DNA from: a virus
Taxonomy: Duplodnaviria; Caudoviricetes
IMG/VR virus record: IMGVR_UViG_3300037851_000323
Span: 1-48,360 of that record
Strand: one strand, 5' to 3'
DNA: 48,360 nt
Shown: positions 729 through 48,360 of the stretch, piece by piece
Layout of the letters: each line of letters starts with the position of its first letter
Numbering within the stretch: the stretch's first letter is position 1
Notes under the pieces: model-generated
What the model was told of the DNA's origin: nothing
Database searches by the model: none
Seen by the model: only the letters and a program-made list of their open reading frames with translations
Made by a program: the position numbers and the translations under genes

Positions 729-1949
729 ATGTTAGATTTTTCTAGGGTTATATGGTCCAGTGAAGAAACGAAATCTCTCTGGAAGCCTAGAGTAGATAGG
801 GTAAATAAAGCTATACAGCAACTAGAATTAACCGCTGTCTATAAGAATATGAGAAGGGCTGCACTCCAATTTGATTATTGGCCTAATAATCCCATGGGCT
901 TTGTCACTATAGGAGTAGGTACTTCGGCCAAGTGGAAAGGAATCTATTCAGCTAGGGGAGAAGATCCCAAAGTTGGTGAAGCCTTTAGTGTTAGAACGGT
1001 TACTACTCGGCTTGATCTTATTCCAGATTTTATGAGAGCTTGGACTAAGAGAGATGATGATACAATAGGGATATTCTTAGGTTATCCTCCTTGCTGCATT
1101 CATTTCTTTGGTGAAACTTGGAATAAGGGATTAATTGATCCTACTGAGCAGATGGCTGGAGGAGATACCTTATCCATTAGTCCATATCTTAATCCTCTTC
1201 TTCGCTGGTTGGGAGTACGTCCGATCTTTCATATGCCTTGTTCATTCAAATGTAATAGTTCTATTACTTTAGGCAAGAAATATATGGATTTACTTCCAGA
1301 TCCAGAGAAATCATGGGCTCTTGATCTTTTATCCCTCCCTATTAAATACGACACTCTTAATGGTATTGGAGAGATTACTACTCCCCTATTCAAATTAGCC
1401 TTTGCTTCACAGGGTAAGAGAAAATTCGAGTTTTCCGGCTACATCGTTGATGGGGCAGTAGGTGGTAGGGAATTTCCATATACAGAGGACTTCTGGACTC
1501 TTAATGGTTTCAAGGGGCCAGAGTCTTTAGTTTGTGCTCATGAGTCTATATTAGAACTAATACCAAAAGATGAGGGTTTTGTTATTGACTTTGGTTGTGG
1601 TAATGGGATGCTTCTATCTATGATAGATTGTGAGTATCGAACTGGTATTGATATCAATATAAAAGCTATCAAGCAGGGCAGGAAATTCTTTCCTAATATC
1701 AATTTTATTTATGGGAATATAAATGAGATAAATATCCCACAGCATGATCTTTCTATTATCTCTATAGAAAGATTTGTGGAGTCTCCCAATCCCGTGATGC
1801 TAAAGGATAAGTTAACAAAAGATGTAATCGTCTATTCCTACTCCGATGGAGAGGATCAGTATGAGGAGAGATTTAATAAATACTTTAGTGATTGGGTTAA
1901 GATAAAGCATGAAGCATATGCCGACTACATTAGGAGACCCAATGGCTAA
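729..1949 (+). CDS. DUF483-like Cys/His domain fused to a class I SAM-dependent methyltransferase
   Basis: LGYPPCC and HMPCSFKC motifs in the N-terminal part. The C-terminal part has VIDFGCGNG (SAM motif I) followed by GIDIN. Confidence 0.65.
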   Translation: MLDFSRVIWSSEETKSLWKPRVDRVNKAIQQLELTAVYKNMRRAALQFDYWPNNPMGFVTIGVGTSAKWKGIYSARGEDPKVGEAFSVRTVTTRLDLIPDFMRAWTKRDDDTIGIFLGYPPCCIHFFGETWNKGLIDPTEQMAGGDTLSISPYLNPLLRWLGVRPIFHMPCSFKCNSSITLGKKYMDLLPDPEKSWALDLLSLPIKYDTLNGIGEITTPLFKLAFASQGKRKFEFSGYIVDGAVGGREFPYTEDFWTLNGFKGPESLVCAHESILELIPKDEGFVIDFGCGNGMLLSMIDCEYRTGIDINIKAIKQGRKFFPNINFIYGNINEINIPQHDLSIISIERFVESPNPVMLKDKLTKDVIVYSYSDGEDQYEERFNKYFSDWVKIKHEAYADYIRRPNG

Positions 1950-11546: not shown

Positions 11547-12724
11547 ATATCATACTCCTTTCTCTCTAAGAAACCTCCATACTGCTGGAGCAATGTCTCT
11601 GTAGCGGCATAAAAGGTTTCTTTACCCCTATTCATTTTCTTTATAGCATTACTATATTCCATTGTTAAACTCATTCTTTCAAGATCCACAGCGTCAAAAT
11701 CCCCCCAGTGTTTTGAAAGGATTTCTGCTCTAGAAATGAAGCGACCTCTGGCAGAGAGCAAACAATCAATGAAGATTCTGAGCTTAGGCGCAAATTCTCC
11801 TGAGCCTTTACCCTTCGTAACGCTGGCGGCAGACTGTTCAAAACTACTACATACTTCGAGGGCTTTGATGACATCTTCCTTCTCAATAATTAACTTAGGT
11901 GCGCGTGAAATAGCAAGCACCATTGCTACCTTCATAATATGATCCGACATTCTATTAGCCATGCCTGTTACATCAGGACGCTTTTCCGGTTCATACTTAT
12001 TATACCAATCTACATAAAGCTCACGCGCTCCAGTTGTAGGAATTATTGGACCTTCGAGTCGTGCCATTTCCTTTAATGGTTCAACTAGTTTAGGTATATC
12101 CATAATGGTGTGGGGAAAAGGATTCTTACAATGCCTAGCCCACTCTTCAACAACAAGGGTACGACCCATAAATCCGCCAGTAATATCCTTAGTTTCTAAC
12201 ATATCAGAGAGATGCGTCTGATTGACGGCACCTAGCATGGATACACCCAATCCCTTAAGCTCTTCTTTACCCGATCCTTTAAGGGTATAGCTCCATGTTG
12301 GATTATAGTGCCCATCATAGAGATCTGTAAGGATTGTAAGAGCCTCTGGATCTCTGATGAGAACTGTTGACATCTCTCCACTTGCAATAAGGCCGCACGC
12401 ATCTGTAACTGGGGGTTGACCTGATCGAGTATAAGTTGTTGCAAGTTCCTTAATGATTGCCTGGATAGAGTTCCTTCCAGAGATAAGCCTAGTATTTCCA
12501 ACCTCCCTGACTAATTTTGTAGCTAGTGATATAGGGTTCCCTTTCCTAACCCCGGAAGGTGCTACACACATGACATAGATATTAGGATAAAGTTTTGGCT
12601 CTCGGTCTAGCCATACCTTGTTTTTTAGTATTGCGGATATTGCCGCTACTGTGGACCAGTAAAAGAAGCGGCGAGGAGACTCAAAGTCCTCTGTCAATTT
12701 CATAATGTCGTCGATGTAGGACAT
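11543..12724 (-). CDS. DUF3987/YfjI-like P-loop ATPase, probable replicative helicase or primase-associated protein
   Basis: YPNIYVMCVAPSGVRKG Walker A-like motif, LTDLYDG and GGFMGR. Lies directly downstream of the DNA polymerase. Confidence 0.7.
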   Translation of the reverse strand: MSYIDDIMKLTEDFESPRRFFYWSTVAAISAILKNKVWLDREPKLYPNIYVMCVAPSGVRKGNPISLATKLVREVGNTRLISGRNSIQAIIKELATTYTRSGQPPVTDACGLIASGEMSTVLIRDPEALTILTDLYDGHYNPTWSYTLKGSGKEELKGLGVSMLGAVNQTHLSDMLETKDITGGFMGRTLVVEEWARHCKNPFPHTIMDIPKLVEPLKEMARLEGPIIPTTGARELYVDWYNKYEPEKRPDVTGMANRMSDHIMKVAMVLAISRAPKLIIEKEDVIKALEVCSSFEQSAASVTKGKGSGEFAPKLRIFIDCLLSARGRFISRAEILSKHWGDFDAVDLERMSLTMEYSNAIKKMNRGKETFYAATETLLQQYGGFLERKEYDI

Positions 12725-15108
12725 TGTTCTCGCTTCCATTTCCTAAGGTCTTTATAATTATATCCAAGCTCTACCTCTCCTGGAATAATTAACTTTCCTC
12801 TCGGTAGGGAGCAACTTGAGAAATCTATTGGGCGCTCAAGCTCTCTTAGGAAGAGTTCAGCATGAAACTTAATAGATTCTGGATTATCCGGGATTTCTGT
12901 TAAGAAAGCATCATGTGATTCTAGCAAAAACCTGATGTTAGGAATCTCTTTCTCGATTCGATACATAGCCGATGTAAGATGATCCTTAACTGTCCCCTGT
13001 GGAATAGTCGCGTATGCTTCCTTAAACAGATCATGGCCCCATCTCTCAAAGAATACTCTTGTTCTACCATTAGGATTCCGTAGGGTTCTGCTTTCCTCTA
13101 GTTTCTTAACAATTTCACTATGAAAAATTCCTCTGATCTTTGGGGAGCGCTGATGGAATATCTCGAGATTTTTTCCAGCCCGCCACTCTGATATATTGAC
13201 GTCAATACCGAACCTTCTTGCACTTGTATTTACTTCTAACATATGGGTATGCTTCTGCATGTCATAGTTTCCTGCATGCCGAAGCGTCTTACCCATGAAT
13301 CTCTGGTCTTGCGTAACATCCTCGAACTTACAGCCAAAAATCCAGCAGGCTGTAACACGATGGATGTCAGTTTTTTCAAACAGCTCTAACATCTCCTCAT
13401 CATTAGCAAGAATGGCAACGACGCGCGCCTCTGCTTGAGAGAGATCCGCATTCATGAAGATATATCCGGGAGAAGGAACAATCATGGCTCTGATGTCTTT
13501 GCCGAGTTCTCCATGCTTAGTGATACTGTGGAATGAAAGCCCAATTTTATGAGGTCTAACCGGAGCTTTGAGAATAGCTGTAGAGCTTCGTCCAGTTTCT
13601 GTGCCTCCAATCCGGTACCCAGCCCTGAGCTTTCCATCATAGTCCATTTGAACTGATAGTTTACTCTTAGCATTCCTAATTCTCCTAAGATCAATAATAA
13701 GGTTCAGGCCCTTCACTTGCTCTGGCTTTTTTCCATGATTGGCTAAAAGTGCAACCAGAGTCTCTTCCGAAACATTCTCTCGTTTCGGCATTCCAAGAGT
13801 TGTGAATACAAAGAGGGGAACATCCTTCGTGTTAGATGCGACATTAACATGGAAGCCAGCAATCTCATTAAGTTCTGTTTGATACTTAATCTCGAGATCC
13901 GTATACCTCGAGAAAAGCTCCTGCCTTTTTTCATAATCAATTCTTAATCCCCTCTCTTCCATCCTTCGATAAAGACCATGTTGGGGCATGATAAAGTCGA
14001 AAAAGAAATCCTTAAGCTCACGTTCTTCGAGTTCCTTAAGTTGTTCCTCCATACACTCATACTGGACAACACAATCCTTAGCGTTGTAAAGGTAGTGCCT
14101 ATCAAGAGAATCTTTTTTAGGGTTATACTCCCTTCCTTCATCTTTGTAAAAGGGTTCTCTTGTATAGATAGAACTGATGAACTCTAGCTTTTTAGGAAAC
14201 TCAGGATTAAGTACATGCTGTGCCAGCATAGTATCGAAATAAACCTGCTCATCCTTAATCCTTATCCGCATGGGATTCAGAAGTTTGCTATGATCGAATT
14301 TAAAGTTCTGTCCACATATCTTCAGCTTTGGATTTTCAAGAAACCTTGCCAACATTCTCCATATTTCTCTCCTCTCTGAGTCAGTCATCAGGATACTACC
14401 TTTAAGATGACTTAATGGGATAGTAGGAACGGAGACGGCATGATTCTTATTAAACGCTAACCCTATACATGTTGGAATACATTTGATAACTTCAATATCA
14501 ACCATCACTTTATCAAGATGTTTATATGCATCCAAGAAGTTATATAGTTCATAGGATGAGCGAATAATGCCCAGTGTCCTATTAGGCAAGTCTAAGTCCG
14601 GCCTTTGACTCTCCTTAATTGCTCTTGAAATATCCGCTTGGATATATGCTTTCTGCTGATATATAGTTGTTCGTTTGAAAAGTGAGGCGGGATGTATAGA
14701 CGAAACGACTTTATAGTTACCATGTATGGAAGAAAGGATAGAGCCGCGCCACTTAGTAATACCCTCTTTTCCCGTGAGGGTAGAGAGTGCTAGATTTCCT
14801 AGAGCCAGAATACAATTTGGCTTAATTGTATCAATCTCCCTCCAAAGCTCAGCAATTCCCTCTTCGATGGAATGTCCTGTTAGGCTTGCATTTTCAATGT
14901 CATCACCAGGACACCTATACTTGAAGACATTTGTCGTATAAACTTCATTACGATTCATGCCTCCATTGCGAAGCATTTCATCTAGTTCTTTCCCAGAAGA
15001 TCCTACAAATGGACGACCCTGTATTACTTCTTGTTTGGCGGGAGCTTCACCTATAATTAATAGTTTGGCATTGGCTGCTCCATAGCCTCCTACATATTCT
15101 CCTGCCAT
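12700..15108 (-). CDS. polA: Family A DNA polymerase with N-terminal uracil-DNA glycosylase (family 4-like) and 3'-5' exonuclease domains
   Basis: UDG: GEAPAKQE..GRPFVGSSG, HPASL. Exonuclease: DIE, NFKFD, YNAKD. Polymerase: TETGRSS, DLSQAEAR (motif A), RFMGKTLRHAGNY (motif B), SHDA (motif C). Confidence 0.92.
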   Translation of the reverse strand: MAGEYVGGYGAANAKLLIIGEAPAKQEVIQGRPFVGSSGKELDEMLRNGGMNRNEVYTTNVFKYRCPGDDIENASLTGHSIEEGIAELWREIDTIKPNCILALGNLALSTLTGKEGITKWRGSILSSIHGNYKVVSSIHPASLFKRTTIYQQKAYIQADISRAIKESQRPDLDLPNRTLGIIRSSYELYNFLDAYKHLDKVMVDIEVIKCIPTCIGLAFNKNHAVSVPTIPLSHLKGSILMTDSERREIWRMLARFLENPKLKICGQNFKFDHSKLLNPMRIRIKDEQVYFDTMLAQHVLNPEFPKKLEFISSIYTREPFYKDEGREYNPKKDSLDRHYLYNAKDCVVQYECMEEQLKELEERELKDFFFDFIMPQHGLYRRMEERGLRIDYEKRQELFSRYTDLEIKYQTELNEIAGFHVNVASNTKDVPLFVFTTLGMPKRENVSEETLVALLANHGKKPEQVKGLNLIIDLRRIRNAKSKLSVQMDYDGKLRAGYRIGGTETGRSSTAILKAPVRPHKIGLSFHSITKHGELGKDIRAMIVPSPGYIFMNADLSQAEARVVAILANDEEMLELFEKTDIHRVTACWIFGCKFEDVTQDQRFMGKTLRHAGNYDMQKHTHMLEVNTSARRFGIDVNISEWRAGKNLEIFHQRSPKIRGIFHSEIVKKLEESRTLRNPNGRTRVFFERWGHDLFKEAYATIPQGTVKDHLTSAMYRIEKEIPNIRFLLESHDAFLTEIPDNPESIKFHAELFLRELERPIDFSSCSLPRGKLIIPGEVELGYNYKDLRKWKREQCPTSTTL

Positions 15109-15220
15109 ATTCAAACCCAATAATAAACTATAGGTGCTTCTTTTACCTTCTCACAACGCAGCAATCTTGACAGAGGCGTGCCACAATCGCGCGCCGCTTT
15201 GAGCTTGTCGAGTAGCGTCT

Positions 15221-15440: not shown

Positions 15441-15752
15441 TTATGTATTATGTTTTCGCCAAATGAGAAAGGCCCACGCAGCAATCTTGAGAATATCTTC
15501 TGGATTCTTTCTAGCATGATACCTCTTTACTTTATAAACAATCTCTCCTAGAGCATGACCGTCTCCAGCAATTTGCTCAACAAAATCAAAGAGGTCATTG
15601 GGACCATCTACACCAGTCTTATTATAAGACTTCTGAGCAGCCGCTCCGTCTAATAGAGCCCTAATTGCTTTGGCAAAGTCATCAAAGTTAGGCCCCCTAA
15701 CACCAGCCGCATCCCTGGCTGCTTTATCAAAAAAATCTTCTTCATTGCTCAT
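15441..15752 (-). CDS. DUF3310-like small phage protein
   Basis: GEIVYKVKRY...EDILKIAAW resembles the KY..R...EDL.KA..Y signature. Confidence 0.5.
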   Translation of the reverse strand: MSNEEDFFDKAARDAAGVRGPNFDDFAKAIRALLDGAAAQKSYNKTGVDGPNDLFDFVEQIAGDGHALGEIVYKVKRYHARKNPEDILKIAAWAFLIWRKHNT

Positions 15753-16969
15753 TTTTTTAATCTCTCATCTATTCTTTCTTTAACCCTTCTGTCCCGCTCG
15801 ATGAGAATGTACCTACGACCTGTCTTGACACATGCTGCTCCAACAGATCCAGAACCCGCAAATGGATCAAGCACGATATGCCCAGGATATGTGCAATCCA
15901 TAAGTATATTTTCGATAAGAGAGACAGGTTTTTCATTGGGATGTACCAACTTTTGAGATGGCACAACCGAATAGCTTTTGACACGACTGAGCTGTTGGGG
16001 ACAGGTAAGTACAGGCTTCCCCTTAACTGCAAGGAGGATAAGTTCTGTGTCCCGCGCGTAATCCCATGCTGCGGTTCCACGGGAAAGGACTCCTGTTTTA
16101 TGCCAGATAAGTGGACCCCCCGACAGTGTGAACCCATAATTCGGGAGGAGTTCTCTGTAGTCAATGTAATCCTCCGTTCCTACAAACATATATAGAAAAG
16201 AATCTGGTTTTAGAACACGATAAATCTCTCGGAATGTGGGCATCGTCTCCTCATCCCGAACAAACTTATCATTTTTGAATTTTATCCACGGTGGGTCCGT
16301 GATGCAGGTGTCGATATAATCATTAGGAATTTGTTTAAGTATGTCGATTGCAGATCCAAGATATACAACATTAACGTCGCCTTCAATAGGAGCCGCTCCA
16401 TATAGCTCGGCCTCAATTCTCTTCGCTTTCGCACGGACAAGCTTGAGAGCAGTCCTTCTATCTTGTACGTTTCTGAGTGAAGGATCCGAAACAACCGCAT
16501 CAGCGAGCATGATAGCTTCTGAAACCCCTCCAATGCTAAGAGCGAGTTCATTGGCTGTATCTGATATTGACCAACCTTGTTTCTCTGTACCCTTCTTTGG
16601 ACGACCGGCTTTGCCTTTGCCATGTTCAGTCTGTCTTTCATCGTGAAGCCGCTTAATCAAGTCTGATTGATCCCACCATGTTAAGTTAGTTCGTCTTAAG
16701 TTTTCATGAATAGAATCAATCAAAACCCTGTGATCATCAGCTTCTACTACCTCTGCCTCGATTTCTGTGAGTCCCAAAAGACTGCAAGCAGCAATGCGAC
16801 GGCGGCCGAAAATAACAGTGTACTTGCAATTATTGTCTTCTGTCGAGGGGTTAGGGCGGACACGTATTGGTTGAAAGAGACCTTGAGTTTTGATAGAATC
16901 TGCGAGTTCTTTGAGGTCATCATCTTCTTTAATCTCCTCCGACTCAATATCTGATAGTTTAATTTTCAT
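15749..16969 (-). CDS. ParB-like N-terminal domain fused to an amino (N6-A/N4-C) DNA methyltransferase
   Basis: ParB: ELADSIKTQGLFQPIRV, GRRR, ENLRR, HTH. MTase: TDPPW, HPNEKP, DPFAGSGS. True start is ATG 16969, since the track start lies inside the tRNA. Confidence 0.88.
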   Translation of the reverse strand: MKIKLSDIESEEIKEDDDLKELADSIKTQGLFQPIRVRPNPSTEDNNCKYTVIFGRRRIAACSLLGLTEIEAEVVEADDHRVLIDSIHENLRRTNLTWWDQSDLIKRLHDERQTEHGKGKAGRPKKGTEKQGWSISDTANELALSIGGVSEAIMLADAVVSDPSLRNVQDRRTALKLVRAKAKRIEAELYGAAPIEGDVNVVYLGSAIDILKQIPNDYIDTCITDPPWIKFKNDKFVRDEETMPTFREIYRVLKPDSFLYMFVGTEDYIDYRELLPNYGFTLSGGPLIWHKTGVLSRGTAAWDYARDTELILLAVKGKPVLTCPQQLSRVKSYSVVPSQKLVHPNEKPVSLIENILMDCTYPGHIVLDPFAGSGSVGAACVKTGRRYILIERDRRVKERIDERLKK

Positions 16970-16984
16970 TAATATCCTCTGATA

Positions 16985-17068
16985 TGCCGGGAGCGGGACT
17001 CGAACCCGCACGATCTTTTTGATCCGAAGATTTTAAGTCTTCTGCGTATGCCATTTCGCCATCCCGGC
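16985..17068 (-). tRNA. trnL: tRNA-Leu (anticodon UAA), no encoded CCA
   Basis: Acceptor stem GCCGGGA/TCCCGGC, anticodon arm GAAGA-CTTAAAA-TCTTC, long variable arm, T arm GCGGG-TTCGAGT-CCCGC. Confidence 0.93.
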
Positions 17069-40582: not shown

Positions 40583-42496
40583 ATGCTGTCCCCAATCATT
40601 TCCTATAAGGGCCGATACGGCCGTGACGCAATGGATGATGGTGTTCCCTTCGATCATGCAATTGATGAAGAGAACATTGACTTCACGGATGTCTCTTCTG
40701 GTACGCGTAATGGATTCGTTCCTTATCTAGAGGCAGGAGGTGGTTGGAATGGTGTATGTCTTCGTGCACATGTATTCGAAAGGGTTGGGGAGGCACCACA
40801 GATTCTAATTTTAGATGATGGTGGAAATATTTACTCCTCGATTAGCTTTGCCTCTCCAATCCTTACTTTCGCTTCACCCCCTGAAGACTTTGCAATTGTA
40901 TCAATGTATGGTCGCTGTTATATATGTCCGCATACTGGTTTAGCGGGAGCTACAGCAGAGAAAGTTTATGTATATACTGGTACTGGTGTAGCTAGAGAGG
41001 CGGGGGGAGCCGCACCTACAGGCCATACCCTTGCTGGTGTAGAAGTAGCTGATGGCAAGATGGAAAAAGGTACTCGACTCTTTGCCATATGTTATCTAAC
41101 GGATACTAGTCATTACACTCCTCCCGGTTTGGAAACTGCTGATGTATTAAGCTTTGAAACTACAGCGGATAATAAGAAATTAACAATCTCAGGATTAAAT
41201 AAAGTAGGTATTCCCTCCTATATTACTCATGTTCGTGTTATAGCTACTCCCGTTCTTGGGGAAACTTATAACGGAAATCCTAAGGAACAATCATGGTATT
41301 TTGTTCCTGATGCATTGGTTACAACTGGAACAGATACGGTTACAGTAGACTTCTATGACGCTGATTTAATCGCATCTGCTGATTATCTCCAGTATCAGAA
41401 ATCTACCATTCCTGCTGGCTGTGCATTGGTTGATTTCAATGGTCGAATGATAGTAATAGGAGATCCTGCATCTTCAGCTAAACCCTGGGTTTCTTCCCCC
41501 ACAGAGTGTGAATCCTTTTCTGACTTAGATGGATACATGGTGGTCGAACCGGGAGAGGGGGGAGCATGTAGAAATGCTGCCTCAAGTCGGGGGATACTAT
41601 ATATAACGAAGTCTCAGAGAATCTATTCTGTAGAAGAGAATGGAGCTAGTCCAACTACTTGGACCTGTTCTCGCTTAGATGCTGCAATGGGGGCTGAGGC
41701 AAATGGATTATCTAAGATCCTAAATTCTACGGGAACGGCACAAGATGCAATATTTCTAGCTGATAGATCAGGAATCTTTATGTTTCCTAATCAAGTTGAA
41801 CTTACTTGGAAGATTAGGAATCTTTGGAATTTAATCTATCAGCCATATTTCTACAAGGTTCAACTTCGTTTTGATCCTATCAGAAGTAAGATATATGCTA
41901 ATCTTCCCCTTGGTTCTTCAACCGAATGCAATTATTTATTAGTAGGGGACTTTTCTTTAGGATTAAGTAAGGAAAATATCCGTTGGTCCCTTTGGACAAT
42001 TTATTCTGATGCTGCCCAAACTACTGTATTAGCTACGACTTCTATTTTCATAATGGTTGATAATTCGACTAAGTTATCTTACATTCTGTTTGGTAGCTCG
42101 TCTGGTAGTATTTACAGGATATCTTATTCCGCTAGAAGGGATCAATTAGCCACTAGTACCTTTAGACATATCAAGTCCTTTATTCGCCTTGGTTTCTTCC
42201 CACCAGAGTCTAGTGGGAATGTTAATCAGTTGACCGAAGTGAGATATAGAATTAAAGGTTATGGCACTCTAACCTCTGATTTATATGGCCTTGATGATAG
42301 CGTCTCCTACTCATTTCCAGACATGACTCTAGCCACTTCTCCGGGTAAAGAAATATTACGACCTTGCAATCTAGTTAATGAAAAGGGCTCTTTGAAGCTT
42401 ACGGTGAATGGATCTACTTCTGGGAGTGGACACTATTTTGTTCTCTTTGGGATTCGTATTGATACTAGTCCTATTTGGGCATCGAGGCCAAGATAA
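40583..42496 (+). CDS. Putative tail nozzle / tubular protein (beta-propeller)
   Basis: 637 aa, beta-rich, FNGRMIV and WVS repeats, located after the adaptor. Confidence 0.6.
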   Translation: MLSPIISYKGRYGRDAMDDGVPFDHAIDEENIDFTDVSSGTRNGFVPYLEAGGGWNGVCLRAHVFERVGEAPQILILDDGGNIYSSISFASPILTFASPPEDFAIVSMYGRCYICPHTGLAGATAEKVYVYTGTGVAREAGGAAPTGHTLAGVEVADGKMEKGTRLFAICYLTDTSHYTPPGLETADVLSFETTADNKKLTISGLNKVGIPSYITHVRVIATPVLGETYNGNPKEQSWYFVPDALVTTGTDTVTVDFYDADLIASADYLQYQKSTIPAGCALVDFNGRMIVIGDPASSAKPWVSSPTECESFSDLDGYMVVEPGEGGACRNAASSRGILYITKSQRIYSVEENGASPTTWTCSRLDAAMGAEANGLSKILNSTGTAQDAIFLADRSGIFMFPNQVELTWKIRNLWNLIYQPYFYKVQLRFDPIRSKIYANLPLGSSTECNYLLVGDFSLGLSKENIRWSLWTIYSDAAQTTVLATTSIFIMVDNSTKLSYILFGSSSGSIYRISYSARRDQLATSTFRHIKSFIRLGFFPPESSGNVNQLTEVRYRIKGYGTLTSDLYGLDDSVSYSFPDMTLATSPGKEILRPCNLVNEKGSLKLTVNGSTSGSGHYFVLFGIRIDTSPIWASRPR

Positions 42497-43932
42497 TGGT
42501 ACAGCAAGCGCGCTCCAATAGGATTAAAGCAGACCTTGTACACCTCGAGAAACTAAGCCCCTCAGTTCACAAGGCTCTTGTCTCAATGCAGAGGGATATC
42601 TCTGAGTTATATGAAGAATTACATCCTATTGAGGCAATAGTTGGAGAGTACGCAATAGCGGTATCAGACCGGCCGGATCTTCCAGCTACATTTAGCTATT
42701 CTTTTGGTCCTTATTCTGTTAATTTTCAGTGGACTTCCGTATCTACAGCTTTATTCTATGAACTTAGAGTTGGGGGGTCAGACTGGGATACAGCTACTTT
42801 TGTGGTTCGGACGCCCAGTCTTGGAGCATCAGTTGATCCCTTAGCAATAGGTTCATATACTTATAGACTAAAAACAATCACATCCGCTGGAATATATAGT
42901 GAGTTCAGCACAGACCTGGCTGTTTCCGTGGTTGGGCCAGCCGCTCCATCTCTTGCCTCACAAGTTATTGATAACAACGTATTACTTTGGTGGACCAACC
43001 CAAGCTCAGAGTTTTGGATAGATCATTATATTCTTTCAGTAGATAGTGTAGATTTCTCCCAAACAACAGCTCTTTTTGCTTCTCGTTTTGAGATGCTATC
43101 CGGGACTTATACTTATGGAATTAGGGCAGTAGATACATATGGTAATGAAGGAGTAGAGACAACTGTAACACTCTTTGTAAACCAGCCACCAGATTTTACA
43201 CTGTATAATTCATATACTATGGATGGCACGGCTACAATGACTAACTGCTTCTTTGAAGATCCATATTTCTATGGAGCGGTTGATCTTACTGACACCCCTG
43301 CTATTCGGTCTGGAACATATGCGACTCCCGCCGATCAGGTAACAGCCGGTTATGCTGTGGTTTATCAGCCCAACTTGCTAACGGCTACAATCGAACAGAA
43401 GTTTGATGCAGGTACTATTTTAAATGCCTTAATCATTACTACTTCATGGATTGAAGAAATAATACCAACAGCCACTGATTTAGATATATCAGTTGAGATG
43501 AATATATCAGATGATGATGTTGTTTGGTCTGGTTGGACTTCTGGTGCATCCCAATATTTTGATCATTTTAGGTATTTCAAGATTAGGGTATCCTTTACTG
43601 CTGATAATGCTGATGACTTTGTTAAACTATCAGAGATTAAATCGGTTCTATCCGTAAAACGAGAGGTTGATAGCAATACAATCTTCTGTGATTCAACTGA
43701 TGCAACTGGTACAGAAGTAGATATGCCAGGAGATGTATCACTTGGACATGGCTCAAAAACGTTCAAAGATATAGATAGTATTACCGGAGAGGCTCTGACA
43801 ACAGAACCTGCTACGGTAGTCATAGATTTTGTTGACATACCCAACCCGACATCTTTTTCTATTTATGTCTTTGATGCCGCTGGAAGAAGAATAGATGCTA
43901 ACGTCTCCTGGAAAGTTAGGGGAGCAGTCTAA
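42496..43932 (+). CDS. Tail protein with Fn3-like domains
   Basis: W..V....YELR and GTYTYGIRAVDTYGNE Fn3-type motifs. C-terminal VSWKVRG. Confidence 0.65.
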   Translation: MVQQARSNRIKADLVHLEKLSPSVHKALVSMQRDISELYEELHPIEAIVGEYAIAVSDRPDLPATFSYSFGPYSVNFQWTSVSTALFYELRVGGSDWDTATFVVRTPSLGASVDPLAIGSYTYRLKTITSAGIYSEFSTDLAVSVVGPAAPSLASQVIDNNVLLWWTNPSSEFWIDHYILSVDSVDFSQTTALFASRFEMLSGTYTYGIRAVDTYGNEGVETTVTLFVNQPPDFTLYNSYTMDGTATMTNCFFEDPYFYGAVDLTDTPAIRSGTYATPADQVTAGYAVVYQPNLLTATIEQKFDAGTILNALIITTSWIEEIIPTATDLDISVEMNISDDDVVWSGWTSGASQYFDHFRYFKIRVSFTADNADDFVKLSEIKSVLSVKREVDSNTIFCDSTDATGTEVDMPGDVSLGHGSKTFKDIDSITGEALTTEPATVVIDFVDIPNPTSFSIYVFDAAGRRIDANVSWKVRGAV

Positions 43933-45473
43933 TGCCTAGCACTAATTATTGGGTACGTTGGGACCCAACAAATAAGAAATGGGAATTCAGTATCAATCAG
44001 GGCTCCTCTTGGTCTGATCTCGTCGAAAACCCTACTTTTGAGGTTACTAAATTTAATGAGATAGCCGCACCAGCAGTTTCAGATGAGGGTAATGCTAAGC
44101 TTTATATGGATAATGCTACTCATCAACTCATGCTTTCTGAGAATGGTGGAGCTTATGTTCCTATAAAAGCAGCTTTTGAGATTTATACTGCTGACTCCAT
44201 GACTGTAACGACAGGGGGTCTTGGTTCTGGTACTGTAACAACTACACATACTTTGGATGAGACATCTGTTAGGATAGATGAGGTTGGTGGCTCTCCTGGT
44301 ATGGATGTAGAGTTAACTATTAATACAGGTAAGATAGTATCTTTATCAGAACTTATTGTACATTCTTATTACTCTGCTGCTTCTAGTGGTCATTCTGTAG
44401 CTATTCAATGTTACAATTATACTACCGCTGCTTGGGTTACTTTCCATACTCTTGTACCTGCTACTGGTCTAGAATATAATGCATTTACTCTAGATTCCAA
44501 TTATCTCAGCTCTGGTAATGCTAGGATGAGATTCTATCATACCGCTTCTGGTAATATCAACCATGATCTTTATATTGATTATGTAGCATGGCGGTCTGCT
44601 GATATCTCCGCTGGTCTTATATATGTTAAGAAGACTGGGGATACCATGACGGGGGACTTGACCCTCACTAGCGCGACAACTTTAAAGCCACAAGTATCTA
44701 TTACTAATACCAATGCGGATGCTAATTCTGCTTCTCTTTACTTTGCTAAGTATAGTGCTAGTCCTGCTGATAATGACTTATTGGGCCTAATTCGTTTCTA
44801 TGGCTATGATGATGCCGGTACCCCAAACACCAGGAATTATGCACAGATCTATGGTTATGCTAAAGATGTATCTACAACGACGGAAGACGGAGCTATAGCA
44901 TTTGAGTTGATAACAGCTGGAACTCTAAGTAGTTGTCTTATTTTGATGGAAGGAAAGAGCGGCTCTGCACCAGCTAGCTTCTGTGACTATACCCCACAGA
45001 CAACCGCTCCGAACATCAGGCTCTACGCGCATCCGCTGGGAGTAAAACTTAGGGCTGATAGTGTAGCGGCGGTTACTATCACTGGCGGTTTGTCTTATGC
45101 CTACATCTTTGATGCAGTAGACTATGATGCCAGCTCTTCTCAACTCTATGCAGCTACTTGTGGTGGGACAGCAAACGCTGGAATATATGTTGTTCAGACT
45201 GGTTATTATCGCTGGAGTGTAATTGCTACAGTAGAGGTTCCGGCATCTACAGATATTGCTTGGTATGCAGCCCTTACAACATCTACTACTGTAGGAAACT
45301 ATCTTGGAATTCAAGTAGAAAGAAATGATGCAACCTCGGCTAAGTACAAGACAATGTCTATGAGCGGAACCGCCCTTATACCCGCTGGATACTACATTAT
45401 GTTTATGACTAGCATTAATGCTGCCCCACCAGACAACAACTGGTCAACATGCTCTATTGAAAGGCTAAACTAA
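43932..45473 (+). CDS. Tail fibre / receptor-binding protein
   Basis: YVKKTGDTMTGDL fibre motif and a C-terminal C1q/TNF-like beta domain (IYVVQTGYY). Confidence 0.7.
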   Translation: MPSTNYWVRWDPTNKKWEFSINQGSSWSDLVENPTFEVTKFNEIAAPAVSDEGNAKLYMDNATHQLMLSENGGAYVPIKAAFEIYTADSMTVTTGGLGSGTVTTTHTLDETSVRIDEVGGSPGMDVELTINTGKIVSLSELIVHSYYSAASSGHSVAIQCYNYTTAAWVTFHTLVPATGLEYNAFTLDSNYLSSGNARMRFYHTASGNINHDLYIDYVAWRSADISAGLIYVKKTGDTMTGDLTLTSATTLKPQVSITNTNADANSASLYFAKYSASPADNDLLGLIRFYGYDDAGTPNTRNYAQIYGYAKDVSTTTEDGAIAFELITAGTLSSCLILMEGKSGSAPASFCDYTPQTTAPNIRLYAHPLGVKLRADSVAAVTITGGLSYAYIFDAVDYDASSSQLYAATCGGTANAGIYVVQTGYYRWSVIATVEVPASTDIAWYAALTTSTTVGNYLGIQVERNDATSAKYKTMSMSGTALIPAGYYIMFMTSINAAPPDNNWSTCSIERLN

Positions 45474-45474
45474 T

Positions 45475-45699
45475 ATGAAGAAGATAAGGGGAACCATAGA
45501 CCTTCCAGACCCAGTCTATGATGCTATCAAAACTAAGATACCTGATCCTGATGCTTGGGCGGATACAGTTTTAACAAATAAATTAAAACAGAAGATTAGA
45601 GAGCTTGAAATATTAGAAGATAGGAGAAGGATATCAGCAATTAAGAATGCATCTCCAAGTGTTAAAACTCAAATAGATACACTTTTAGGACTTATATAA
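45475..45699 (+). CDS. Small hypothetical protein (possible fibre chaperone)
   Basis: 74 aa directly after the fibre gene. Confidence 0.55.
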   Translation: MKKIRGTIDLPDPVYDAIKTKIPDPDAWADTVLTNKLKQKIRELEILEDRRRISAIKNASPSVKTQIDTLLGLI

Positions 45700-45700
45700 T

Positions 45701-46159
45701 ATGGCAAACATAGATTGGGATACACAACCGGCCACGGCAAACACAGATACGTGGGCAAATTATACTGCGTATCTGCGGAATCGTGACGACCATCTTGGGA
45801 CGATGGATTATTCCGTAGGTGTTACTGATTCAGACATTCCTACTGGTTTCATTCAGTTTGTCGTAGCTTCTAATAAGTTTCAGCGTTGGTCTGGGTCTGC
45901 TTGGGTTGATATTGTCCTTTCTGTAGCTGGTGGTGGTACAGCCCTAACATCTGTTGGAGATATGATTTCACAGAATGCTAACGCTATAGCTATTACTGGC
46001 GGGACCATAGCAGGTCTTACATCCCTCAGTCTTTCTGGAAGCATAACCTTTGCTGCTGATGGGACATATAGTATTGGTACCTCATCCGCACAGGGTAGTA
46101 TGGCATATTTCAAGAATGGTCTAAAAATTCCTGTCGGGACAGATAAGTGGGCTACATAA
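45701..46159 (+). CDS. Short tail-fibre-like protein
   Basis: FQRWSGSAW, LSVAGGGT and QNANAIAITGGTI are motifs common in phage fibres. Confidence 0.6.
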   Translation: MANIDWDTQPATANTDTWANYTAYLRNRDDHLGTMDYSVGVTDSDIPTGFIQFVVASNKFQRWSGSAWVDIVLSVAGGGTALTSVGDMISQNANAIAITGGTIAGLTSLSLSGSITFAADGTYSIGTSSAQGSMAYFKNGLKIPVGTDKWAT

Positions 46160-46837
46160 ATGTCAAAGATACCTGGTTCAATTTGGGTAGAAGATACTGA
46201 ACTTCATGTAGTTATATCTGATGGTAGAGAATTTATGTGGGAGGGATATAGTGTTGGTGCAGCTGCGGGTCAACCCGGATCAGTTTGGATTGAGGGGGAG
46301 AACCTCCATTACATAGATGCTCTAGGGGCAGATCGATATATTGAGAGTGCTGATCTTGGTGCTAAATCTGGACTTGCTGGTTCCATCTGGCAGGAGAGTA
46401 CATATATAGGTTGGTTAAGTGCGACTCAGCATAAATATGTGGGCCATGCAGATGTTGCACATTCTGACCATGATGATAATACAACCCATGAGGATGTAGC
46501 TTACTCGGATCATACGGATCATACTGATACTCATGGTGATACAAGTCATAGCGACGTAAGCCACTCTGATACTCATACAGATACCTATTATTCTACCGAC
46601 CATGTTGATACTTATACTGACCATAATGACGTAGGTCATGCAGATGTACATGGTGATGTAGCACATAATGATACACATACTGATACTCATGGTGATGTGG
46701 CTCATGAAGATATTACCCATGTAAATACCCATGGGGACGTAACTATACCTCATGGAGACGTTGAACATACTGATGTTCCACTCTATACAGACCATGGGGA
46801 TGTACTTCATGATGACAAGCCTTTTGAGGTTACGTAA
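46160..46837 (+). CDS. His-x-Asp repeat protein, candidate radical SAM substrate
   Basis: Three N-terminal GS(I/V)W(V/I/Q)E repeats. Residues 96-219 hold 23 HxD, 3 YxD and 1 HxN triplets. Confidence 0.85.
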   Translation: MSKIPGSIWVEDTELHVVISDGREFMWEGYSVGAAAGQPGSVWIEGENLHYIDALGADRYIESADLGAKSGLAGSIWQESTYIGWLSATQHKYVGHADVAHSDHDDNTTHEDVAYSDHTDHTDTHGDTSHSDVSHSDTHTDTYYSTDHVDTYTDHNDVGHADVHGDVAHNDTHTDTHGDVAHEDITHVNTHGDVTIPHGDVEHTDVPLYTDHGDVLHDDKPFEVT

Positions 46838-47847
46838 TGAGTGTTGAGCTTAAACCCCTCAGCCAAGCATGTAATTTATCCTGTAAGTATTGCTATCAGG
46901 CTAGTATCCGTTCGTCTGAAATTAGGCCTAAATATGATCTCGTGAAGATGCTTGAGTCTGCTAAAAAGCAGAAGTGTAATTTTACTCTATATGGGGGTGA
47001 GCCGCTCCTTCTTCCTTTTGCTGATTTAGAGAAGGTGTTTAAGTTTGGTTATGATAATTTCAAACAAAATGGAATTCAAACTAATGGAGTATTAATAACT
47101 GATAGACATTTTGAGCTCTTTAAAAAGTATAATGTTTCTTTAGGCTTTAGTATAGATGGCCCAGGGGAATTGAACTCTGCTCGATCTAGAGAAGTATTCA
47201 CAAACTATTCTATTAAGAACTTTTATAGAGCCCTGAAGGAAGGCTTTAGTGTTTCTCTTATTACGACGCTGACAAAGGTTAATTGTAAGCCTGAGTTAAT
47301 TAAGTGGTTTTCCGAACTTGATGACATGGGTCTTAAGAATCTGAACCTTCATTGGCTTGAAAATGATAATAAAACTGGACTGAATATTTCACAGAGTGAA
47401 CAGATTATCTTTATGGGGTGGTTACTGGAAGCAACAGAAAGATTCAAAACATTACGTTGTGATACCTTTACAGATATGATTAAACGTTTATTTACAGGAG
47501 CGGGTGGCACCTGTATTTTTAATTACTGTGATCCATATAATACAACTGCTGTACAAGGTATAGGACCTAATGGTGAATTACATAATTGTGGTAGAGTAAA
47601 CAAGGCTGGTGTGGATTTTGTTAAAGCTGATGATAATTATCTTATGAGAACTGAGGCTCTAAGAAATACGGAGCAGGCAGAGGGAGGATGTAAGGGTTGT
47701 AAATATTTTTATGCTTGTACAGGTTTCTGTCCTGGTACGGGAATTAATGGTGATTGGAGGAATCGGACTGAACACTGTGAAACCCTCAAGACTATCTTTG
47801 GGTGGTTAGAGGTAGAGCGTATTGTGGTTTCGGTTTACAACAAATGA
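46837..47847 (+). CDS. Radical SAM/SPASM-domain maturase
   Basis: CNLSCKYC (CxxxCxxC), GGEPLL, QTNG and SIDG motifs. SPASM cysteines: C-x4-C...C...CKGC-x5-C-x3-C...C. Confidence 0.92.
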   Translation: MSVELKPLSQACNLSCKYCYQASIRSSEIRPKYDLVKMLESAKKQKCNFTLYGGEPLLLPFADLEKVFKFGYDNFKQNGIQTNGVLITDRHFELFKKYNVSLGFSIDGPGELNSARSREVFTNYSIKNFYRALKEGFSVSLITTLTKVNCKPELIKWFSELDDMGLKNLNLHWLENDNKTGLNISQSEQIIFMGWLLEATERFKTLRCDTFTDMIKRLFTGAGGTCIFNYCDPYNTTAVQGIGPNGELHNCGRVNKAGVDFVKADDNYLMRTEALRNTEQAEGGCKGCKYFYACTGFCPGTGINGDWRNRTEHCETLKTIFGWLEVERIVVSVYNK

Positions 47848-48050
47848 TAGATTTATTTATTGGTGCCGGTTTAACAGCCGCCCTAGGAACGGGTGGTTAT
47901 TTTGCAACTAGAGTTATTAGAAATGGAAAAGACATAGCTGTTTTAGACACCAAATTAAGCGATCATGAAGAAGATCATAGACAGCTTGACAATCGTTTGG
48001 ATAGGATAGAAAATAAATTAGATAGGGTGGTAGAAAAAATAAATGCGTAA
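47844..48050 (+). CDS. Small membrane protein with coiled coil (holin-like)
   Basis: ATG 47844 (ATGA overlap), one hydrophobic helix, then RLDRIENKLDR. Confidence 0.55.
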   Translation: MIDLFIGAGLTAALGTGGYFATRVIRNGKDIAVLDTKLSDHEEDHRQLDNRLDRIENKLDRVVEKINA

Positions 48051-48360
48051 ACTATTCTTAATTCCCTTGACTCTTATTCTCTTCGCGGGTAAGTGTGATA
48101 CTCAGTGTGAGCAGTGTAAAAAGGGAGAACTCCCGAAGAATCTTTGTGATGCTTTAATTGCTGCGGGTCAATGTCCGACTCCAGAACCTACTCCTGAACC
48201 TACTCCTGAGCCTACTCCTGAGCCGACTCCAGAGCCTACTCCAGAGCCGACTCCTATACCTTTACCAACCCCAACTCCTGTCCCAATTCCTACTCCGGGA
48301 ACCCTTTATCCCTCCTGTCCGAAAGACCCAGCAGAGGGGGCACAGATTTATATAAACAAT
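48043..48360 (+). CDS. 5' part of the Cys-rich secreted protein or lipoprotein that continues at the window start
   Basis: MRKLFLIPLTLILFAGKC signal peptide; frame open to the window end. Confidence 0.85.
   Translation, partial: MRKLFLIPLTLILFAGKCDTQCEQCKKGELPKNLCDALIAAGQCPTPEPTPEPTPEPTPEPTPEPTPEPTPIPLPTPTPVPIPTPGTLYPSCPKDPAEGAQIYINN
48068..48360. repeat. Terminal redundancy / circular overlap, right copy
   Basis: Matches 1-269 except in the PEPT tandem, which is 24 nt longer here. Confidence 0.95.

Follow-up and report, generated by a model that had tools for sequence, protein, structure and literature searches.

The bond that defines a triceptide joins an aromatic residue to the C-beta of the residue two positions further on (i and i+2) (PMC11499958). 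Among the synthases that form such bonds, OscB links Trp to Asp or Asn and YxdB links Tyr to Asp (PMC11002830), while HaaB, YhhB and HtkB cross-link through the C2 of His (PMC11002830, PMC11499958); the specificity residues of HtkB and HaaB are D214 and H204, respectively. In the triceptides characterised so far, proteolysis takes place ahead of the first ring (PMC12912966). A different system, HXS (HxsA-D), carries out a radical S-adenosylmethionine (SAM)-dependent maturation of a His-x-Ser repeat protein that adds 8 Da (PMC13128918), so the chemistry cannot be read from a motif alone. In the Thermus phages Cumys and phiMa, three linked genes have been described for which DNA modification was suggested, with cyanobacterial homologues near deazapurine genes (PMC11437467); the terms histidine, tail fiber and RiPP (ribosomally synthesised and post-translationally modified peptide) do not occur in the main text of that paper. 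Here we analyse a related module in a 48,360-nucleotide stretch of tailed-phage DNA (IMG/VR record IMGVR_UViG_3300037851_000323, positions 1 to 48,360; hereafter the window). It comprises a radical SAM/SPASM enzyme, the protein encoded directly upstream, which has a folded head followed by a tract of aromatic-x-Asp/Asn triplets (the HxD protein), and a DUF483 protein. The enzyme very probably modifies the triplets, and with modest confidence we favour the fuller reading that it forms i/i+2 rings in the triplets of a protein that caps the tip of a fibre.

The HxD protein is the 225-amino-acid product of the open reading frame (ORF) at 46160-46837. A first-pass annotation of the window had reported 23 HxD, 3 YxD and 1 HxN triplets and had stated that every His of the tract has Asp or Asn at +2. 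Both statements were borne out: the counts from residue 96 onwards are exactly these, and in residues 96-220 Asp or Asn follows at +2 for 24 of 24 His, compared with a maximum of 15 (mean 6.3, sd 1.9) in 100,000 composition-preserving shuffles. Tyr143 and Tyr144 lie in the tract with no Asp at +2, and the three His of the head fall outside the motif. Across 59 viral tracts, where the residue two positions before a tract Asp or Asn is not His, it is enriched relative to composition for Tyr (5.0-fold), Phe (6.7-fold) and Trp (3.8-fold) and depleted for Arg (0.67-fold) and Gln (0.55-fold); Pro never occupies the X position of a triplet. Arg and Gln codons are also single-step neighbours of His codons. 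The corresponding values were 6.1-fold (Tyr), 7.1-fold (Phe) and 5.4-fold (Trp) in 111 tracts from protein searches, and 8.5-fold, 2.0-fold and 0.7-fold in 26 cellular tracts. Thus, the motif is aromatic-x-Asp/Asn, wider than His-x-Asp, as the aromatic triplets of the first-pass annotation had suggested. Because the +2 spacing is strict, X is free except for Pro, and other aromatic residues substitute for His, the motif matches the triceptide definition. Moreover, Phe cannot ligate a metal yet is a cyclophane substrate (PMC11002830, PMC11499958), which counts for the cross-link reading. Relatives of the HxD protein numbered 397 at an expectation value (E) <= 0.001, some of them matched via the tract only, and the protein had no Atlas match above 0.78.

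The TAA of the HxD gene (46835-46837) overlaps the ATG of the enzyme gene (46837-46839), the arrangement noted in the first-pass annotation, and overlaps or gaps of no more than 20 nucleotides are found between the two genes in most viral relatives. A single-protein scan of viral contigs returned no relative; with an alignment query we fetched at least 77 viral, at least 80 genome and 80 metagenome loci, duplicates included. Enzymes scoring at least 230 bits to the profile were taken as the clade, cleanly split from distant SPASM enzymes, which scored at most 128; this gave 47 viral, 30 genome (cellular) and 80 metagenome clade loci, with 30 viral and 50 genome loci as controls. A tract, defined as at least four His-x-Asp/Asn within 60 residues, lay near the enzyme at 45 of the 47 viral clade loci, 20 of the 30 from genomes and 64 of the 80 from metagenomes, among the matches listed. 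It was present in 35 of the 36 metagenome loci with at least 2 kb on both sides, and the two viral loci lacking it have only 0.4 and 1.4 kb upstream. Beside the distant SPASM enzymes a tract was found at none of 50 genome loci and, counting HxD only, at none of 30 viral loci. DUF483 occurred in 43 of 47 viral, 28 of 30 genome and 60 of 80 metagenome clade loci versus 0 of 80 controls. We conclude that the pairing of enzyme and HxD protein is a real, widespread module; the adjacency postulated in the first-pass annotation is conserved, and the contrary outcome that it had envisaged, homologues usually occurring without an HxD or YxD neighbour, is not what the loci show.

The CxxxCxxC motif of the enzyme (C12/C16/C19) lies too near the start of the protein for a RiPP recognition element (RRE) to precede it. 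Eight further Cys (226, 231, 251, 285, 288, 294, 298 and 314) do not vary among 49 homologues and are conserved to at least 94% in a set of 143, in agreement with the claim of a full SPASM Cys set and no RRE. The enzyme therefore has the radical SAM core and SPASM Cys of a triceptide synthase, and its neighbour is a presumed substrate with 27 aromatic-X-X3 motifs. Also conserved are R25, R116, H172, R253, K256, R271 and R308, with H172 invariant; these Arg and Lys residues and H172 would fit an acidic substrate. Pfam matched only Radical_SAM (E 1.6e-16) and Fer4_12, and residues 2-300 align to the structure of an anaerobic sulfatase maturase (anSME; E 1.7e-10). Identity with that enzyme was rejected: the score on its model, TIGR03942, was 72.5 bits for a cut-off of 349, about as weak as on the cyclophane models, and no sulfatase was found among the 45 window proteins (Pfam). 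The enzyme was below the cut-off of every NCBIfam model (best 25 of 70 families), including HxsB (37 of 370 bits), and its assignment to the curated cyclophane-synthase families (AmcB, YhhB, GrrM/OscB, FxsB, XyeB) was likewise rejected. Four clade relatives also scored far under the cut-offs (XyeB, 39-45 of 450). The top matches of the window enzyme and these relatives were anSME, AmcB, DynA, YhhB and GrrM, whereas three other phage SPASM enzymes instead scored best on the PapB/thioether branch. The enzyme thus appears to be cyclophane-synthase-like in action yet outside the named families.

Homologues of the enzyme numbered 855, and 47 of the 120 listed carry at least two HxD in their own C-terminal tail. 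The window enzyme has no such tail and belongs to a short subclade that lacks the C-terminal extension and self-HxD tail of many relatives. In a quick, unrooted tree, 21 cellular enzymes without head proteins, together with P0023, formed one branch among the viral ones (SH-aLRT, Shimodaira-Hasegawa-like approximate likelihood ratio test, 92); the remaining four cellular entries are accompanied by head proteins and may be proviruses. Two loci (L038:5491-8950 and L044:6281-9663) hold two clade-type enzymes and two HxD proteins each, with long HxD tails on the enzymes.

The third member of the module, absent from the first-pass annotation, is the DUF483 gene. Sequence comparison showed that the ends of the contig overlap, giving a circular junction, and on the circle the DUF483/methyltransferase gene at 729-1949 consequently lies 949 nucleotides after the enzyme. 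Its product matched Pfam DUF483 below the cut-off (E 8e-4) as well as Methyltransf_25, and had an Atlas feature score of 0.91 to DUF483 clusters. The DUF483 domain was modelled with a predicted local distance difference test score (pLDDT) of 93, and its four Cys are kept. In 61 of 123 ORFs the domain is followed by a methyltransferase motif, and in 8 of 123 it is fused in frame behind the enzyme; enzyme-DUF483 fusions were also seen in Bryobacterales. Fold searches with the domain gave a best Foldseek E of 0.36 and, in VIA, a best Z of 5.5 (root-mean-square deviation (rmsd) 4.0, 96 aligned) for a protein of unknown function, and its profile found nothing meaningful among PDB sequences; neither here nor for the head described below do blank fold searches imply a new fold or an absence of relatives.

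How the HxD protein might be mounted on a fibre was suggested by structure prediction. AlphaFold2 placed 98 residues of the head at pLDDT >= 90, in three beta units. The tract was modelled at pLDDT 47-54 and the last block at 94, with a strand at 222-223; that the final residues are confidently placed after a low-confidence tract suggests that the chain end returns to the head. P221 is kept in at least 90% of 66 sequences. The protein encoded upstream of the HxD gene was modelled as a trimer with a pLDDT of 95. A complex of three of its C-termini with one head scored 0.93 versus 0.02 for the best control; 116 of 157 solved complexes and 2 of 215 mismatched pairs attain the mark used for this score, figures that carry over only roughly to this case. 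The runs agreed in at least 97% of contacts with partner pLDDT of at least 89, and in the model the last 13 residues of each fibre copy touch one of W9, W43 and W77. The head is therefore predicted to cap a trimeric fibre by binding its C-terminal peptide. For 40 of 65 head-bearing ORFs the docking motif is found either at the end of the upstream gene or in frame ahead of the head; the upstream gene varies in length and tends to end in the conserved docking peptide. In three of the nearest relatives (loci L161, L162 and L193), the GxxW repeats of the head have been lost, and so has the end of the docking motif.

The genomic surroundings also point to the virion. PF07484, the phage tail collar family, was found in 4 of 18 longer homologues of the upstream protein, and its Cumys equivalent follows an annotated tail collar fibre gene. 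A PHROGs scan covered 112 proteins drawn from 34 of the 47 viral loci, from which near-duplicates and short loci had been excluded; matches to tail, connector or virion families, many of them weak, came from 22 of the 34. At four loci, an annotated virion protein itself bears the tract as a fusion, namely a tail fibre (L020), a central tail fibre J (L010) and two virion structural proteins (L014, L046). Together with the predicted docking, these results make it highly probable that the HxD protein is a fibre-tip component, and hence that the target is structural rather than secreted, as had been proposed. No transporter or leader peptidase is annotated beside the module in the window (Pfam), also as had been noted. 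The placement of the HxD gene at the end of a tail/fibre block was upheld in part: homologues support it, whereas within the window no gene in 40583-46837 has a tail annotation (Pfam, PHROGs), and the label of that region as a tail block would depend on the homologues. At one viral locus (L047:233-6983), the tail fibre and HxD genes come immediately after a diversity-generating retroelement with Avd and reverse transcriptase.

Searches with the head gave a best Foldseek E of 0.06 and, against VIA, a best Z of 4.0 (rmsd 4.7, 93 aligned) for the bacteriocin LlpA, followed by weaker lectin entries; BFVD held one match, a 342-amino-acid protein with 37% identity and the same length as phiMa_29. 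PDB sequence searches with profiles of the head and fibre end and with two upstream window proteins returned nothing meaningful. The three-Trp head also occurs with Cys-rich extensions in place of an HxD tract (P0256, P0265, P0162, P0211, P0213 and P0227), proteins for which NCBIfam gave no match, and from these sequences it may be a general display module of fibre tips.

The triplets of the window tract are arranged in mirror symmetry. Twenty-four of the 27 fall into 12 pairs, with start positions that add up to 312 or 313 in each, and the three unpaired triplets comprise one extra, one at the turn and one facing Tyr143. With spacings shuffled, the mirror score has a p-value of 0.0003, and its z of 3.6 compares with 0.8 for a direct repeat, so a plain head-to-tail duplication of the spacing was rejected. 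Mirror symmetry was significant in 23 of 41 head-bearing proteins from the loci and, among database proteins, in 42 of 74 with a head and 19 of 27 without; for headless tracts the numbers were 9 of 20 viral and 1 of 13 cellular. The direct-repeat control was much weaker than the mirror signal across the tract sets. Exact mirror pairing of triplets implies an antiparallel hairpin, in whose register each His would stand opposite the Asp of the partner triplet. Such a register would suit metal sites or the pairing of rigid rings, and bonds between the strands are also conceivable. Because triplets also occur in non-symmetric cellular precursors and in the enzyme's own tails, the recognised unit is likely to be the local triplet. 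The tract is also the variable part of the module. The near-identical phages L161 and L162 share 98% identity in the head, 100% in the enzyme and 36% in the tract, a divergence as expected for an exchangeable receptor-binding part; the tracts of Cumys and phiMa are 94% identical, least so in the middle.

From these results we propose that the HxD protein is best read as an adhesin like the phage protein gp38 that is rigidified by an enzyme. The prediction is that a single cap molecule uses its three Trp repeats to hold three fibre C-termini and that its chain end comes back to the head, which would make the tract loop out. In the infected cell, the enzyme, its conserved Arg and Lys residues holding the acidic tract, would abstract a hydrogen from the C-beta of Asp or Asn and join this carbon to the ring two residues upstream (at C2 of His or C3 of Tyr), a triceptide-type reaction costing 2 Da per triplet. 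DUF483 would probably help the enzyme, by presenting the substrate or by a second modification. Once stiffened, the strands could align antiparallel with His opposite Asp, perhaps with metal ions between them, and so form a rigid needle that serves as a gp38-like receptor-binding adhesin. More tentatively still, many unrelated bacterial and archaeal viruses might share an interchangeable fibre-tip adhesin of this kind, a poly-cyclophane hairpin on a three-Trp cap, of which the cellular RiPP-like clusters would be offshoots. In that broader picture dozens of His/Tyr-to-Asp rings would be closed, the strands would zip together antiparallel, possibly via metal held by pairs of imidazole and carboxylate, and the cap would snap the needle onto any fibre that ends in the short docking peptide.

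Several observations weigh against ring formation on a fibre-tip cap. The enzyme is far below the cut-offs of the cyclophane models (AmcB, 64 of 425 bits; YhhB, 53 of 445; GrrM, 49 of 310; FxsB, 36 of 370), and a His-Asp bond is not among the triceptide links in the portions of PMC11002830, PMC11499958 and PMC12912966 available to us. The high percentage of His followed by Asp over the tracts is partly circular, since tracts were selected on that motif, and the locus counts are not independent because they include duplicates. When HxN is counted, 5 of 30 viral control loci carry a tract, made up of true His-x-Asn or Tyr-x-Asp/His-x-Asn repeats that neighbour other SPASM enzymes. Ten of the 30 cellular loci have no tract by our definition: three are short or cut contigs, two have candidate precursors with three motifs and five have none despite ample flank, and in these last five genomes a DNA pattern for three tandem HxD gave 20 matches versus 15 for a control pattern. 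Over all loci, loss of head Trp residues and loss of the docking motif show no clear co-variation, the motif being present in 36 of 56 cases with at least two GxxW repeats and 4 of 9 with fewer. Finally, mirror symmetry is significant in only about half of the head-bearing proteins.

As an alternative, the same module might act on the same virion target by another chemistry, either a His-to-Asp staple between strands or an alteration of Asp or His that closes no three-residue ring (methylation, decarboxylation, epimerisation or an added carbon, by the enzyme with the DUF483/methyltransferase protein). The exact mirror register that sets each His opposite a partner Asp would suit a staple, the methyltransferase motifs and enzyme fusions of DUF483 would suit an alteration, and both the +8 Da on the His-x-Ser motif of HxsA (PMC13128918) and the position of our enzyme outside the named cyclophane families leave room for either. 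Yet triplets also occur where there is no symmetry, in cellular peptides and enzyme tails; spacing, free X and aromatic substitution are those of a triceptide (PMC11499958); and about half of the DUF483 proteins have no methyltransferase motif. We consider this alternative rather unlikely, though the most serious one.

It is improbable, in our view, that the tract is an unmodified metal-binding needle and that the enzyme and DUF483 act elsewhere, for instance on DNA bases. Paired antiparallel triplets would indeed form 2-His/2-Asp sites, the T4 gp37 needle binds seven irons through His (PMC6957217), five cellular loci have no visible precursor, and the deazapurine neighbourhood described for the cyanobacterial homologues (PMC11437467) speaks for DNA modification. 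This explanation leaves unaccounted for, however, the near-obligate linkage of enzyme and tract across unrelated phages and archaeal and bacterial loci, the HxD tails on enzymes and the use of Phe or Trp for His; moreover, no deazapurine gene was found among 74 neighbours from 22 cellular loci (a partial selection) or among the 45 window proteins (Pfam). Least probable of all is a conventional RiPP, in which the tract would be a core that is modified, severed from the head and set free as a peptide or metallophore that diffuses away, with no place in the virion. The cellular relatives have short precursors (63-155 amino acids), some with leaders that look twin-arginine-like by eye, and characterised triceptides do undergo proteolysis (PMC12912966). 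Identification of our system as a released triceptide was nevertheless rejected on the folded 95-amino-acid head, predicted to dock on the fibre, the chain that apparently returns to it, the tracts fused to large tail proteins and the lack of an annotated transporter or leader peptidase nearby. Ring formation in the triplets of a fibre-tip cap thus remains the account that we favour.

Table 1. Coordinates of the module and adjoining features in the window.
Feature	Position	Strand	Basis
Fibre-like protein of 152 amino acids, predicted trimer anchoring the cap	45701..46159	+	Homologues, model
C-terminal docking peptide of the fibre-like protein, residues 140-152, consensus L-V/I-x-P-V-G-x-D/N-K-W	46118..46156	+	Alignment, predicted interface
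HxD-protein head (residues 1-95), a pseudo-three-fold beta domain with three G-S-x-W repeats	46160..46444	+	AlphaFold2
Mirror-symmetric triplet tract (27 aromatic-x-Asp/Asn motifs; residues 96-219) with its turn near residue 156; the presumed substrate	46445..46816	+	Counts
C-terminal anchor, residues 221-225, apparently returning to the head and closing the hairpin	46820..46834	+	Conservation, AlphaFold2
TAATG stop/start overlap; probable translational coupling	46835..46839	+	Sequence
Radical SAM/SPASM enzyme, 336 amino acids, without RRE	46837..47847	+	Pfam, homologues
DUF483-like four-Cys domain fused to a SAM methyltransferase; third module member	729..1949	+	Pfam, Atlas
Cys-rich protein with Pro-Glu-Pro-Thr repeat, between the enzyme and DUF483 genes	48043..48360, continuing 3-710 across the overlap	+	Terminal overlap

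Elsewhere the window encodes a terminase, a family A polymerase and an SU10-like adaptor scoring just under the cut-off (Pfam, PHROGs). The polymerase (12700-15120, minus strand) has an N-terminal uracil-DNA glycosylase-like domain, and a ParB-like domain is fused to an N6/N4 DNA methylase at 15749-17011 (minus strand; both Pfam). The nearest relatives L161 and L162 have a similar gene at the position of the Pro-Glu-Pro-Thr protein, whose repeat number differs between the two window ends, reflecting either assembly ambiguity or length variation. Promoter and terminator scans of the window were at chance level. No RNA sequencing run is listed as containing the window DNA, and the sole DNA run is a freshwater metagenome, which may be the sample of origin.

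Other loci of the survey showed arrangements of separate interest. Cellular clusters with short HxD precursors (L081:7719-7952, L083:7764-7973, L085:7761-7952, L084:10784-11206, L087:10219-11022 and L088:7106-7558) are, from their sequences, a candidate for an undescribed RiPP family. Bacterial proteins of 875-990 amino acids with a C-terminal HxD tract lie beside the enzyme in four loci (L086:5328-7982, L095:2-2629, L097:4549-7521 and L104:5112-7982), and the two that were scanned had no Pfam match. The full trio of head-HxD protein, enzyme and DUF483 occurs in two archaeal assemblies, from Nanohaloarchaea and Halorubellus, where it is probably proviral (L107:687-4089 and L109:6704-10267). 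At L060:3003-7794 (also L061 and L062), baseplate-like genes are followed by a 450-511-amino-acid Tyr-x-Asp/His-x-Asn repeat protein and three radical SAM-type genes, the last of which falls outside the present clade and has the DynA and anSME models as its best matches. At L065:3609-6971 and L072:3173-6955, a distant radical SAM enzyme is immediately preceded by a phage protein of CxxxC repeats (38 in 1120 amino acids and 32 in 1260, respectively), which may be a parallel of the thioether type.

Peptide maturases of the radical SAM type have been described for bacterial natural products and for one defence system, and in the literature that we searched the function of the enzyme/HxD/DUF483 module is undescribed, as is any case of a phage using such a maturase on its own particle. 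Neither a phage His-x-Asp target nor enzymatic cross-linking of a virion protein was found in that full-text literature, which leaves most subscription papers uncovered and whose supplements may list cellular members. If our interpretation holds, chemistry of the peptide-antibiotic type would build part of a virus particle, virions could bear enzyme-made cross-links by the dozen, overlooked by ordinary proteomics, and host recognition might depend on a chemically built needle. DUF483 would gain a role, and peptide engineering a His-Asp cross-link and a very processive enzyme. These ideas are open to direct test, since the module is present in cultured phages of the laboratory strain Thermus thermophilus HB8 and the cap-fibre model points to specific residues for mutation.

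Of the described systems, those Thermus phages are the closest. Cumys, phiMa and phiLo encode the enzyme at 42-45% identity, and in Cumys and phiMa the gene order is tail collar fibre gene, a 97-amino-acid gene that ends like the window gene at 45701-46159, a head protein of 342-343 amino acids with 53-54 HxD, enzyme and DUF483; in phiLo a protein with 72 HxD lies 4.4 kb from the enzyme on the other strand. With tblastn, all three window proteins matched Cumys and phiMa, and phiLo matched for the enzyme and DUF483 only. The radical SAM module of Cumys and phiMa (Cumys_13/12/11) is thus truly orthologous, with enzyme, head, fibre C-terminal motif and DUF483 shared, and differs in that the window enzyme has no self-HxD tail and the window DUF483 is displaced and fused to a methyltransferase. 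Among enzymes, anSME (PDB 4k36/4k37) is the closest solved structure by sequence and is likewise an RRE-less SPASM enzyme acting on a protein, but differs in its model score and its sulfatase substrate, as described above. The triceptide synthases (OscB/GrrM, YxdB, HaaB, YhhB, HtkB and MicB) share with our enzyme the SPASM radical SAM architecture and repeated aromatic-X-X3 motifs with Asp or Asn at +2; their substrates are cleaved and exported peptides, whereas here the substrate is a 225-amino-acid protein with a folded head and a DUF483 partner. HXS resembles our module in the radical SAM-dependent modification of a His-x-X repeat protein and in having an accessory protein, and differs in being a periplasmic anti-phage defence of bacteria with two enzymes, five basic HxS repeats and the +8 Da at one site (PMC13128918); membership of it was rejected on the HxD/N motif, the single enzyme and the HxsB score. 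For the proposed virion role the closest parallels are distal fibre proteins, although neither PHROGs nor PDB sequences gave a match and the fold searches listed no gp38, a result that does not exclude it. The gp38 of phage S16 is a monomer docked by Trp residues. In T2 and T6, gp38 attaches by one domain, varies in its distal part and is conserved at its extreme C-terminus (PMC3157838, PMC10175313), and it has been described as apparently trimeric (PMC3157838); it differs from the HxD protein in its glycine-rich motifs, and the sections of these papers available to us describe no maturase for it. The T4 gp37 needle, with its His-based metal sites (PMC6957217), offers a likeness to the tract. 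As in T2, T6 and S16, the gene follows directly on the fibre gene and encodes an N-terminal domain for the fibre tip and a variable distal part, and the gp38-type attachment of that domain to the C-terminus of a trimeric fibre encoded upstream is what our models predict for the HxD protein.

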